A DNA stretch of 4,538 nt from IMG/VR virus record IMGVR_UViG_2541047861_000003. The stretch is one strand, 5' to 3'. The translations under genes were made by a program, and so were the position numbers. The notes under the pieces were generated by a model. The model did not search any database. It saw nothing but the letters and a program-made list of their open reading frames with translations, and was not told where the DNA came from. The DNA comes from a virus (Duplodnaviria > Heunggongvirae > Uroviricota > Caudoviricetes > Autographiviridae). This document shows positions 1 through 4,538 of this stretch, in pieces (the stretch's first letter is position 1; each line of letters starts with the position of its first letter).

Positions 1-98
1 GAGTCTTGAGTCTTGAGTCTTGAGTCTTGAGTCTTGAGTCTTGAGTCTTGAGTCTTGAGTCTTGAGTCTTGAGTCTTGAGTCTTGAGTCTTGAGTCTT
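1..98 (-). repeat. Heptanucleotide VNTR: 14 perfect tandem copies of GAGTCTT (+ strand), i.e. AAGACTC on the coding (-) strand; array is cut by the window start so total copy number is unknown
   Basis: Direct reading: positions 1-98 are exactly 14 x GAGTCTT with no interruption. On the - strand all three frames are open through the array; on the + strand every frame hits TGA (GAG TCT TGA). Confidence 0.98.
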
Positions 99-103
99 AA
101 CAT
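1..103 (-). CDS. neuO: Polysialic acid O-acetyltransferase NeuO, 5' end only (start codon plus repeat-encoded N-terminus); partial, continues beyond window start
   Basis: ATG at 103..101 with AGGA at 114..111 (7-nt spacing). Frame reads ATG TTA then (AAGACTC)n, giving M-L-(RLKTQDS)n. This matches the recalled neuO 5' heptad-repeat architecture of prophage CUS-3. Gene body is not in the window, so identity rests on the repeat signature and genomic context (directly downstream of an endosialidase tailspike). Confidence 0.75.
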   Translation of the reverse strand, partial: MLRLKTQDSRLKTQDSRLKTQDSRLKTQDSRLKT

Positions 104-110
104 ATTAGTA

Positions 111-191
111 TCCTACGTTATTTTACCACTAGTTACTTTTCTTGTCATTAAAAAGCATTTAAATTTTTATATTTAATTTCGTTGACGTCAA
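111..191 (-). promoter_or_regulatory. neuO upstream region: Shine-Dalgarno AGGA (114..111) and candidate sigma70 elements (ATGACA 148..143, 17-bp spacer, TAAAAT 125..120; alternative TTGACG 191..186 with AAAAAT/TAAAAA about 16-17 bp downstream)
   Basis: Hexamer matching by eye on the reverse complement of an AT-rich spacer. The proximal candidate would place the transcript start inside the SD, so the distal candidate may be the real one. No experimental support. Confidence 0.3.
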
Positions 192-256
192 TGTTTTTTG
201 CCAATGTACTTACTTCTTTATGTGATCAGTTCATATTTTTGACGCCAACGAAACAT

Positions 257-3202
257 TTAGTGCTTCCCTTCTATTAAGTCTAACCTAGCTTTTATTCTTT
301 CTATTTCTCTGCGCTGCCATGCTGCCTCGATATAGAATAAGAGATCAGGTCTGACCCCCCATCTAGATCCTGCTGGCGTTATTTCAACGCGCTCAATGAT
401 GTCTTCCATTACCATCACTGGATTATCATCCTCATCAACAATGATGCTCCCGTCATTATCAGTCAGCGGCATTTCCCTTTGGCCAGTAATGACGTCATCA
501 TATACTGCGGGATAATCGTCATAGCAAAGAAAGGCATAGCGGCATGTTGTGCTTTCTTCTTCCATGAGTCCGTGAGAAATAAGAACATCACGAAGTTGCT
601 GCGCGATTACACCATGATGTATCCTCGCCCCTTCTTCCCCCTTTATAGCGACAGCGTTCAGCCATTTATAAGCGATATACCTGACGTCACCCCAGGCATC
701 CAGCAATGTTTCGTCAGGAGAGACCGGCTCTGTCTTTAATGTTCCGTCACTGGTAACCACAGGATTGGAGCCAAGATAAACTATCGAGAACCTGTTTCCC
801 GGACCACCAAGAGCATTTACATTATCAAGATAAGGTTTAACATCTCCGTTCTCAAAAAGATGTTCGAGTGCGTTATATACCGCGCGACGTGGAGTACTGC
901 TTCTGGAACCATGCAACGTTATCATTGCACCATCTGCTGAAGACGTTGTTTCACCGCCGCTAACGATTAATCTCTGAGCGGTAACATCATCAGACGGTAC
1001 TTTCTTCGCAATAATGGCGTAATTACCCTCAAGTTTGACTTCCGCGCGAACTTGTCCTGATGTACCTGCATGGACAGTCAGTGACTGGACGGCAACATCA
1101 TCTGTGAAATCAACGGGTACAGGAACCGTCCTCACGCCTGACGTCGACATAAAAGTAGGAAGCGTTCTGTTAGGAGTGGCTCCGTAGACAAAATCCCTTG
1201 AAACAAATTCTTCCTGTTTAATTTTCACCCTGAAACAATACAAATCAGCCGGGTGACCATCGTGAACATAAGGATATTTTCTGTTGTTATCCCCTATGCT
1301 CCATGGGTTTAGAAAGTCTTCCCCACCGAAAATGTAGTACAGCCAGTTGTCTTTGATACAAACTGAACCAACACCAACCGCAGAGTTAACTATTCCGCCC
1401 TGATAAATCTGATCAGTAACATTAACCCACTCTACATTATCCAGACTCCACTCATTGACGTTAACTCTGGTCATAAATGTTCTTGGATAGTTTCCTGCAT
1501 AACGGTTATCAGGTTCTCCTCCTTCCCACTCACCAAATGCGCGCTCACTGCCAAAAATAATCAGCTCATCGCCAACTTTGGCAAAAGGAAGGTTTGAGTG
1601 ATGAACATTATTTGGGAAGCGAAGAGAATTCCATGATGTACCTAAATCAGAGCTTCTGTGCAATGAACTACCGGGTTGAGTACTTAATGTCCCCCTGGTC
1701 GTCAGATACAGAATGCCATCATAATATTTTACACATGGCTCAGATGCATTCGCCTCATATTCTGCAGGTATGCGTCTGCGAACAAAGCTACCAGGAGAAC
1801 CGAAAGCATCAGAGAAATAGAGTATCCCAAGCTCGCGTGGACCAATATCACCATTATGGTAGCCAACAGCAAAACTGTTATCGCTAATCGTCGCAAAACT
1901 GTGAATCTCAGTAACAGGAGTGCTTCCGTCAACAAAAGAAGGAATAGTTCCAAGACTGGTTTTTCTCCATGGTGACGAGTGAAATGATGTACCAAAACTC
2001 CAGTATCTACCCTCGTTATTCTGATCCACATCCTGGGTATTTTGCGTCGTAACTGTAAAAGTATTTTTATCAATAACAGTAGTCACCGTCATATTCCCGG
2101 TAACACCTGTAACACCAGAGTTTGAGAAGTTGACAAAATCACCAGCAAATAATCCGTGATCAGTAATGCGAATATAAGCGACTTGCTGATTTGCTGCTTT
2201 CGTTATACCACCATAAACGCGAAGGCTGCGACTCATTGGGCGATCCCACAACTCTGCAACCTGCAGTTTATTTCCGCTCACGGTCCGCGTCTCAATTACA
2301 GCAAAAAGGCGATTTCTGACAACCCCCATACTCATGCAGTGATAGTTAACTGTGGGATAGTTTTCATGTAAATCTGTAAGCCATTCCGGCGTTGTCCAGG
2401 TCTTCCCGTCATCTCCTGAGCGAACCCATGCAACATGGAGGTTATTTACACCATGGCGGTCTCCAGCCATAAAAGGCGCATAGATGACATTGTCATATAC
2501 AAACGTTTTATCCTGCGTCCAGGCGTTGTACCACGGTGTATCTGTAATTTTAAATAACTCTCCCTGGATAAAATCTTCAGAAACATAAAAAAGAGGCTGA
2601 CCCGGTATTCTCTCAAATAAAAAACGAGCATTTTTAAATCGACTGACATCTGGAAGAGTTGATACTTTAAAAGTAAGCCCTCGCCCATCTATCTTTTCAC
2701 CACCTGTTGCAACAGAAAGTAATTCTGATAGAGCTGATGTATCATCATGAACACCATCACCAATAGCCCCCCAACCTCTTACATCATAACTGTCTCTCCA
2801 TCTTGCTATCTGAAGTTTTGGGTATTTATTCGCTCCATCTGGGTCTTCTAATTGCTGCCGTAGTTGATCAGGATCATACTTCAGCACATTCTGGAAATAG
2901 AACTGCTGTACGCCATACGCATCGTACACAGCCATAGAATGGCCTTGCACAGTTACGAACTTGGCAATCCGTCCGTTATATACAGGGTAACCAGCAGCGT
3001 TAATGATGATTGGTTGCGAAACAGGAACGTGAGAGCCGTCTTCGTTCTCTACATAAACCTGAATCCGGTTTTCAGGATTTACCGGGTCAGTGTCAATTTT
3101 ACCGATATAAATTTTGCCATTGGCTACGGCTTTAAAAGAACGCGCCATAGTGAAGAGTTGCGAAGGCATCGATACAATCACATTGGCTGTAATGTCTGTC
3201 AT
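257..3202 (-). CDS. Tailspike protein, endo-N-acetylneuraminidase (endosialidase) type, with P22 gp9-like N-terminal head-binding domain and C-terminal intramolecular chaperone domain
   Basis: 981-codon ORF, ATG 3202..3200 with GGAG 8 nt upstream, stop TAA 259..257. N-terminal ~113 aa (MTDITANV...VLKYDPDQ) closely resemble the recalled P22 tailspike N-terminus. Two bacterial-sialidase Asp-box motifs S-x-D-x-G-x-T/S-W are present: SGDDGKTW (aa 262-269, nt 2396..2419) and SSDLGTSW (aa 517-524, nt 1631..1654), both verified against the nucleotide sequence. C-terminal region resembles endosialidase chaperone domains. Confidence 0.92.
260..790 (-). other. Tailspike C-terminal intramolecular chaperone-like domain; predicted autoproteolytic Ser818 (nt 749..751) with Lys823 as partner
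   Basis: Motif [13 protein letters not shown] with Ser and Lys 5 residues apart, followed by ...[10 protein letters not shown]...[13 protein letters not shown]..., resembling the recalled serine-lysine dyad region of endosialidase/tail-fibre chaperone domains. Exact domain boundary is approximate. Confidence 0.55.
2864..3202 (-). other. Tailspike N-terminal head-binding (virion attachment) domain, P22 gp9-like; module junction at the YDPDQ motif (nt about 2864..2881)
   Basis: Similarity to the recalled P22 gp9 N-terminus ends right after ...NVLKYDPDQ; the sequence downstream is unrelated to the P22 receptor-binding domain. Confidence 0.8.
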
Positions 3203-3260
3203 TTAATTTGCTCCAGATGCAAAGAATCGCCGCAGCATGGCCACGGTGAATTTTGGGCAT

Positions 3261-3283
3261 AAAAAAACCCAGCCGAAGCTGGG
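3261..3283 (-). terminator. Rho-independent terminator downstream of ant (between ant and the tailspike gene)
   Basis: On the - strand: CCCAGC-UUCG-GCUGGG (6-bp GC-rich stem, UUCG tetraloop) followed immediately by seven U (+ strand 3261-3267 is AAAAAAA). Lies 19 bp after the ant stop codon. Confidence 0.75.
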
Positions 3284-3302
3284 TCGTTGCGTTGGTTATC
3301 TG

Positions 3303-4205
3303 TCAGTAATTATGTACTGAAGGAGGTAATTCTTTATTCTTAAGTCTCATCCATGCGGAAAGATTCGTTGGTCCGTCTGGCTCATTGATATCAACATCTC
3401 GTGTGTGATTGATTAAAACGTCTCTCGCCATATCGATAATACGGGAGAACTCATAACCGCAGTCATGACATCTGCCGGAATAGTTCGATTGAATTTGTTT
3501 TAGCGCCGGATACAGTTCGCGGAATAATGCCTGTGAGCGGTTGGCATAATCCCATAGCCATACAAGGCTGTTTGCTTCTTTTGCAGAAAGCTCGTTGGTT
3601 TTCTTCTCTTGTTTGCCGATGAACTCACCTTCAAGCACTACCCTGTGGATGTACTCTACTGCTTGTGGTATCTGAGATGCATCAAGCTCTTCAATACTTT
3701 CCACATTGAAACGCTGATGAATCATTGCATAAGCTTCTGGGTACATTAGATGCTTTTTGCTGACTAGCATATTTACAGCATCACGAAGCGGAGTCCTGTC
3801 ATCAACAGATGTTTTCTTCCGTGCATTTGCTGCCTCTCCCTTTGTCCAGTAGTCATGCAGCACAGTAAAGCATTCTTCCTGGTACTGAATCAGTTTATCG
3901 CGGATGTCAGCACGAACTTTCTCAGGGTTGATGCTGAACAGCCATCCATTTAACTTCTTCAAAGGAAGGCAGAGTAGCTTACGAAGCTTACCATCAGCGG
4001 CAACCATGTTCATATGAACACAGTTGAATTTGCTAATCTGCTTCATGAGTTTTGTTTGCTGCGTTGACCAGCTCATTCCGAGGTTTTCAACGATTGGCTT
4101 CATCGCAACATATGCAACTCCGGCAGCCATGGCGGTGATAATTTGCTGACCGTTGAATGGCACGTAAGAGGTGTTCACTGCTTCTAAAATTGCTATACTA
4201 TTCAT
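3303..4205 (-). CDS. ant: Antirepressor Ant (P22 immI-type), 300 aa
   Basis: ORF in the supplied track runs 3303..4271 from a GTG. Preferred start is the internal ATG at 4205..4203 ([21 protein letters not shown]...), with GGAG at 4219..4216, giving 300 aa, which matches my recollection of P22 Ant length and N-terminus. Stop TGA at 3305..3303. Confidence 0.8.
4191..4199 (+). promoter_or_regulatory. Candidate extended -10 promoter (TGcTATACT) on + strand inside the first codons of ant, oriented antisense to ant (Psar-like)
   Basis: TG-n-TATACT at 4191-4199; no good -35, consistent with an extended -10 promoter. Predicted start about 4205-4208, opposite the ant start codon and SD. Confidence 0.35.
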
Positions 4206-4287
4206 GTTGGTTTTTCTCCACGGATTTACCGACAACCGAAGCCCTGACTGTTCCAGCAGTTGGGGCTTCACTGTTTTGATTTCTTTG
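4206..4287 (+). ncRNA. sar: Predicted sar-like small antisense RNA complementary to the ant translation initiation region
   Basis: Candidate promoter at 4191-4199 and a strong terminator-like hairpin 4238-4269 followed by a U-rich tract, delimiting a transcript of roughly 70-80 nt antisense to the ant SD. Matches the recalled arrangement of P22 sar RNA. Prediction only. Confidence 0.4.
4238..4287 (+). terminator. Intrinsic terminator-like hairpin for the antisense (sar-like) transcript
   Basis: + strand RNA GAAGCCCUGACUG-UUCCAG-CAGUUGGGGCUUC forms a 13-bp stem including two G.U wobble pairs, followed by ACUGUUUUGAUUUCUUUG. On the - strand the two wobble pairs become C.A mismatches, so the structure is stronger on the + strand. 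Confidence 0.45.
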
Positions 4288-4443
4288 CCGCATCAAGCAT
4301 CACTTCTGAAAACGTGCGCTTGCCACTGAATACTCTTTCTCTTCTCAATTTTTCGTTCGTGCCAAATGATTCGCCATGAACAAAATTTGGTCTTAAAATG
4401 GTAATCGCAATCTCTTTGACTACTGCATCCAAGCGAATCACAC
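4268..4443 (-). pseudogene. Possible 3' remnant of a gene upstream of ant, truncated by the IS insertion (58 codons open to the IS boundary, no usable start codon)
   Basis: - strand frame reads ...[56 protein letters not shown], with stop TGA 4270..4268 overlapping a GTG (GTGA) in the ant frame. Does not match recalled P22 Arc. An open stretch of this length could also arise by chance (about 6-7 percent expectation). Confidence 0.25.
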
Positions 4444-4538
4444 TGAACCGCCCCGGGAATCCTGGAGACTAAACTTCCTGAGAAAGAGGTAAACAGGATG
4501 ACTAAAAATACTCGTTTTTCCCCCGAAGTCCGTCAACG
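4444..4538 (+). mobile_element. IS3-family insertion sequence (IS629/IS1203/IS3411-like), left terminal region; partial, continues beyond window end
   Basis: Sequence from 4444 begins TGAACCGCCCCGGGAATCCTGGAGAC..., a typical IS3-family terminal inverted repeat starting with TG, followed 54 bp later by an orfA start whose product begins MTKNTRFSPEVRQ, which I recall as the IS629-group OrfA N-terminus. Confidence 0.7.
4498..4538 (+). CDS. IS3-family transposase OrfA, first 13 codons only (partial)
   Basis: ATG at 4498 with GAGG 8 nt upstream; translation MTKNTRFSPEVRQ runs off the window end. Confidence 0.7.
   Translation, partial: MTKNTRFSPEVRQ

Follow-up and report, generated by a model that had tools for sequence, protein, structure and literature searches.

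The window analyzed here (the whole stretch of 4,538 nucleotides) begins with a heptanucleotide tandem repeat. Tandem Repeats Finder reports a single array at positions 1-98, with period 7, unit GAGTCTT, 14.0 copies, 100% matches, and 0 indels; on the minus strand, the unit reads AAGACTC. A 14-mer probe consisting of two units (AAGACTCAAGACTC) has 13 matches in the window, compared to 0 expected from 200 dinucleotide-preserving shuffles. On the minus strand, a start codon ATG (103..101) is followed by the two bases TT (100..99) and then at once by the array (98..1). Translation from position 103 to position 1 yields MLRLKTQDSRLKTQDS..., which is free of stop codons up to the window edge and has the form M-L-(RLKTQDS)n (MLRLKTQDS...), with one RLKTQDS heptad encoded per three AAGACTC units. 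Because the array runs past the left window edge, the 14 units are a lower bound. A motif resembling a Shine-Dalgarno sequence (AGGA, 111..114, minus strand) is found 7 nt upstream of the ATG and may function in translation initiation.

The array and its start context are thus confirmed. A preliminary description of this DNA had placed at least 14 perfect AAGACTC copies directly after the neuO start, preceded by ATG TTA. The copies are indeed perfect, but the leader is ATG TT; the A already belongs to the first unit as its base 1, and only two bases separate the array from the ATG. We agree with the further statement that the expression state cannot be called, since the array leaves the window at its left edge.

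Directly upstream of this start, and on the same strand, the window codes for an endosialidase tailspike of 981 aa (257..3202, minus strand), a K1-capsule-degrading protein corresponding to siaK1 of phage CUS-3. Its Pfam set consists of Head_binding, End_N_terminal, End_beta_propel, End_beta_barrel, End_tail_spike, and Peptidase_S74. A P22-type antirepressor Ant follows (3303..4205, minus strand; Pfam P22_AR_N and P22_AR_C, also called by PGAP). The leader of ant is overlapped by a sar antisense RNA of the P22-type immI region (4206..4272, plus strand), which is intact according to Rfam (RF00262, 83.9 bits, E = 2.7e-17). On its right side, the window closes with an IS3-family element, of which it contains the left end and the first transposase codons (MTKNTRFSPEVRQ...; 4444..4538, plus strand). 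Thousands of IS3-family copies in E. coli genomes match this end, and in strain E10 it is annotated as IS3 family transposase.

Positions 1-4443 show 100% sequence identity to many E. coli K1/ExPEC chromosomes which carry CUS-3-type P22-like prophages, and 98.5% identity to phage CUS-3. The gene order in the window matches that of CUS-3, a P22-like prophage in which the neuO array is located beside the endosialidase tailspike. In the CUS-3 GenBank record (CP000711), the homologous array, adjacent to siaK1, is labeled [quoted passage not shown]. In strain E10, the coding sequence annotated by PGAP as "acyltransferase" begins at the base that matches window position 103. Both annotations bear out the earlier assignment of the array to the 5' end of neuO. 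The poly-psi VNTR of CUS-3 neuO (Deszo et al. 2005, PNAS, as cited in PMC3046976; CP000711) agrees with that of the window in its unit, in its position two bases after the ATG, in the encoded RLKTQDS heptad, and in having the endosialidase tailspike gene as its neighbor. Over the 158 nt upstream, the two sequences do not differ. This is the same locus, with 19 copies in CUS-3 of strain RS218 and at least 14 in the window.

The acetyltransferase body is located outside the window; we infer its presence and integrity in this genome from relatives with identical flanks. A NeuO body follows the array in all 25 relatives having the same start context. The E10 protein (265 aa, encoded by a 21-copy allele) matches Pfam Hexapep above the cut-off (E = 1.3e-10), and its residues 24-265 are identical to PDB entry 3jqy, "polysialic acid O-acetyltransferase" (E = 1e-160). 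This agrees with the hexapeptide-repeat acetyltransferase that had been proposed to lie downstream. Matches of the E10 allele to NCBIfam models for galactoside and maltose O-acetyltransferases are, without exception, below the equivalog cut-off. After NeuO itself, the closest solved homolog of the NeuO body is OatWY from Neisseria meningitidis W-135/Y (PDB 2wlc, E = 5e-31), which aligns to the catalytic body alone (query residues 74-257) and thus outside the heptad region. To our knowledge, OatWY is not carried on a prophage. It is a sialate O-acetyltransferase with a left-handed beta-helix (PMC3046976).

The AAGACTC array is open in all three sense frames, each of which encodes the same cyclic heptad RLKTQDS, while TGA occurs in all three antisense frames. 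As all sense frames are open, the array itself never terminates translation; it sets the register in which the acetyltransferase body is entered. Synthetic alleles were generated in silico by inserting 0-45 units between the natural flanks. They give a full-length product (216 + 7n/3 aa) solely when the number of units (n) is a multiple of three. With n = 1 mod 3, a stop codon is reached 5 codons past the array (after ...LVFR), and with n = 2 mod 3, it is reached 17 codons past the array (after ...MGQVMFLYVEIL). No alternative ATG, GTG, or TTG start codon that would rescue these two frames was found; going upstream from the ATG, they close after 14 and 1 nt.

Complete natural alleles, with copies counted directly, were available from 17 genome loci and from 8 CUS-3-like IMG/VR contigs. 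The genome loci have 19, 21, 27, 8, 22, 29, 33, 16, 30, 28, 11, 60, 10, 30, 26, 34, and 21 copies; the IMG/VR contigs have 12, 11, 8, 8, 9, 32, 18, and 11 copies. Each of the 25 arrays is perfect, with copy numbers ranging from 8 to 60. The number of copies is a multiple of three in 10 of the 25 alleles, which have open reading frames of 237-356 aa. The other 15 stop after 28-94 aa. The share of alleles in the "on" state (10/25, 40%) is near the 34% that was found among 64 complete genomes (PMC13001214). For strain MS7163, our direct count of 21 copies equals the value obtained by long reads, Sanger sequencing, and fragment analysis (PMC13001214). Copy numbers derived from BLAST coordinates agree with the direct counts for strains S88, PU-1, E10, ATCC 11775, and JCM 20135. 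In eight further strains, the copy numbers 5, 10, 10, 18, 24, 30, 38, and 38 were derived from BLAST coordinates rather than counted.

The expectation that only multiples of three give full-length NeuO thus held in the 25 natural alleles and in the synthetic alleles with 0-45 copies. A repeat unit with a length indivisible by three is located within an open reading frame, and its copy number sets the frame, as is characteristic of a contingency locus. We consider it practically certain that positions 1-103 (minus strand) represent the 5' end of neuO, the gene for polysialic-acid O-acetyltransferase on CUS-3-type P22-like prophages of E. coli K1, and that the repeat acts as a frame switch dependent on copy number.

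Several peculiarities were encountered among the alleles. In many CUS-3-like contigs (loci L138, L142, L144, L145, L148, and L156), ATGTC replaces ATGTT before the array. With this leader, codon 2 specifies Ser instead of Leu, and the TC adds two bases to the repeat register without altering the frame rule. The CUS-3-like allele of IMGVR_UViG_3300007747_000060 (locus L141, about 984-1074) is devoid of 12 nt (TACTAATATGT[T/C]) which include the neuO start codon, so that GTAGGA directly adjoins a 13-unit array. This deletion is either a locked-off allele or a metagenome assembly error. On out-of-frame neuO genes (JCM 20135 and S88; loci L015 and L016, 857-1192), PGAP annotates an "acyltransferase" of 111 aa (WP_011478229.1) that starts from the internal Met155. 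As this C-terminal fragment is called without a flag for a frameshift or for phase variation, the "off" state is invisible in the annotation.

A different role for the repeat would be in transcription, with the array acting on promoter spacing or as an upstream regulatory array, like some other heptanucleotide repeats, rather than on the reading frame. A consensus scan reveals a candidate sigma-70 promoter for neuO (120..148, minus strand; ATGACA-17-TAAAAT with an extended TG, 10/12 matches), about 17-45 nt upstream of the ATG, and AAGACTC arrays are located directly upstream of start codons in some unrelated genomes. However, the array in the window is downstream of both the ATG and the Shine-Dalgarno-like AGGA, the frame rule accounts for all natural alleles, and the encoded heptads are present in a protein that has been expressed and crystallized (PDB 3jqy; PMC3046976). 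We thus attach next to no probability to a transcriptional role and retain the reading frame as the target of the switch. The candidate promoter is contained in the spacer that separates the neuO start from the stop codon of the tailspike gene (104..256, minus strand). This spacer is identical in 17/17 genome loci, as is the whole 158-nt stretch reaching from the ATG to that stop codon. No terminator-like site was detected in this spacer. Neither a promoter nor a transcription start of neuO was found in the literature searched; DsdC has been described as a regulator of neuO and is reported to bind near its promoter (PMC9659370).

Six loci that do not show any mismatch to the window over their flanks (0/4,345) have 8, 22, 29, 11, 60, and 10 copies, respectively. 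As loci with identical flanks differ in their copy number, the array must mutate far faster than its surroundings. A further case is provided by strains ATCC 11775 (NZ_CP033092.2), with 30 copies and neuO in frame, and JCM 20135 (NZ_AP043894.1), with 26 copies and neuO out of frame. Their assemblies (4,903,501 and 4,903,600 bp) are only 99 bp apart and their neuO flanks are identical. They are probably stocks of one strain, and the difference between 30 and 26 copies could reflect laboratory slippage or an assembly error. The source note of JCM 20135 reads "feces from diphtheria convalescent", and its assembly size matches that of the type strain ATCC 11775. This wording is the classic description of K-12, and the source note may be a metadata mix-up. 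Copy number also varies within a single culture: in fragment analysis, MS7163 was a mixture of alleles with 21 (93%), 20 (1.9%), and 22 repeats (5.4%), and mass spectrometry confirmed O-acetylation (PMC13001214).

The position of the array at the window edge raises the question of whether its length is an assembly product, generated from short reads at a collapsed or chimeric contig end. Both window ends are repeats, 98 bases belonging to the VNTR and 95 bases to the IS3 element, and 7 of the 17 CUS-3-like IMG/VR contigs likewise end within this array. These two observations make it most likely that the window is a complete short-read contig. Its left edge is probably a contig end, the assembly having broken off in the array on one side and in an IS3 copy on the other, and the number 14 was probably set by the assembler rather than by biology. 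Yet all complete long-read or finished genomes that were examined have the array at the same place and in the same register, with 8-60 copies. It is thus the copy number of the window alone that is unreliable, not the feature itself, and we consider it highly improbable that the array is a product of assembly. The neuO array is accordingly taken as genuine. As short-read contigs break in this array, the on/off state of neuO cannot be read from them.

The window prophage differs from CUS-3 in that an IS3 end abuts the ant region. At the junction (4443/4444), the left end of the IS3-family element adjoins a 57-aa open reading frame located upstream of ant. Compared to E10, 538 bp are missing beside the IS element (a 239-nt query spans 777 nt in E10); in that strain, the repressor genes arc and mnt are located there. 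The junction is absent from all 5,426 complete RefSeq E. coli genomes, from IMG/VR, and from JGI metagenome contigs, and a search with the exact Ant protein led to long contigs of other strains only. The prophage is rearranged here and may have suffered other damage outside the window. The intact sar RNA shows that the P22-type immI region is preserved on its ant side, despite the IS3 end located past the small open reading frame upstream of ant.

IS elements (IS3/ISEc52, IS21/ISEc12, and IS66) are often found in the tailspike gene or in ant among CUS-3-type prophages from complete genomes, and neuO is kept. Two loci with an IS-split tailspike gene (L003 and L007) have neuO in frame, with 27 and 33 copies. 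These observations suggest that neuO outlasts prophage decay.

The heptamer itself is not restricted to neuO. Exact (AAGACTC)x4 or longer runs occur in at least 120 stretches from species-representative genomes of other phyla (loci L018-L137), often on many contigs per genome. Carriers are the Acidobacteriota MAG SZAS-13, a Methylococcales symbiont of Iophon, Planctomycetota, Balneolaceae, and others. These arrays mostly consist of 4-15 units, are accompanied by variant heptamers, and occur at many loci per genome. They are variously intergenic, directly upstream of start codons, or within mechanically called open reading frames; in SZAS-13, arrays of 4-5 units are found directly upstream of ATG codons. 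In the Iophon sponge symbiont, the arrays have a common, conserved downstream flank and hence belong to a dispersed element. Over 835 kb of array-bearing loci, we found 186 period-7 arrays in 27 unit classes, with at most 3 arrays for each of the other periods from 4 to 12.

Given such a distribution, the array of the window might be a copy of a generic heptamer element of many unrelated bacteria that is unlinked to neuO. However, the arrays from other phyla have unrelated flanks and mixed variant units and are devoid of a neuO context, whereas the flank of the window corresponds base for base to the neuO start and the CUS-3 tailspike region. The latter already refutes a generic element, and the probability that we would still assign to it is vanishingly small; the array of the window belongs to neuO. 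Conversely, the arrays from other phyla were considered as neuO-like loci and rejected, having unrelated flanks and no acetyltransferase context and representing one of 27 unit classes. They have the identical 7-mer in tandem in common with neuO, and there is no evidence of a relation. Since AAGACTC arrays occur in unrelated genomes, the 7-mer alone is not diagnostic of neuO. One might speculate that frame-neutral heptamers are a recurrent, independently selected switching or tuning module reaching well beyond E. coli, with neuO as its sole characterized example, but we consider this very unlikely. The window itself gives no pointer beyond the known neuO system.

The tetranucleotide repeats of lic1 and lgtC from Haemophilus and Neisseria are examples of simple-sequence contingency loci. 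They have their logic in common with neuO: an intragenic repeat, with a unit length that is not a multiple of three, is located near the 5' end, and slippage toggles translation. The neuO locus differs in its 7-nt unit, in being carried on a mobile prophage, and in that the repeat length also grades the activity of the enzyme in the "on" state.

The sequence anatomy, the frame logic, the identity of NeuO, and the copy-number polymorphism on identical flanks are derived from the current analysis, while switching in culture, capsule O-acetylation, and phenotypes are taken from the literature. The VNTR has been described as starting two nucleotides after the start codon, with 2-93 copies and with active NeuO at multiples of three alone (PMC3046976). 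Three units correspond to one RLKTQDS heptad, and a linear rise in catalytic efficiency accompanies a growing number of heptads (PMC3046976), so that the repeat number also tunes enzyme activity. The gene neuO is reported to be present in 43.5% of 8,659 K1 genomes, with 3-53 repeats in complete genomes, 65.6% of which are phase off (PMC13001214).

Combining these reports with the frame logic, the following sequence of events may be proposed. Units would be gained or lost in replication by slipped-strand mispairing, resulting in a change of register. Whenever the number of units is a multiple of three, NeuO would be produced at full length and the K1 capsule would be O-acetylated; with any other number, translation would stop 5 or 17 codons past the array. 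Among "on" alleles, a longer array would provide more N-terminal heptads and, as judged from published work, a higher catalytic efficiency. The on/off switching of K1 capsule O-acetylation that the preliminary description had invoked is the mechanism stated in PMC3046976 and PMC13001214. The neuO locus thus works as a dial as well as a switch. It is already known in detail, and the window adds no new biology to it.

O-acetylation by NeuO is reported to protect against K1 phage and neutrophils (PMC13001214). More generally, O-acetylation of the K1 capsule alters antigenicity, resistance to K1 phage and neutrophils, and serum sensitivity (PMC13001214, PMC9659370). In view of these effects, the on/off state of neuO has a bearing on the phenotype of K1 isolates responsible for neonatal meningitis and urinary tract infection.
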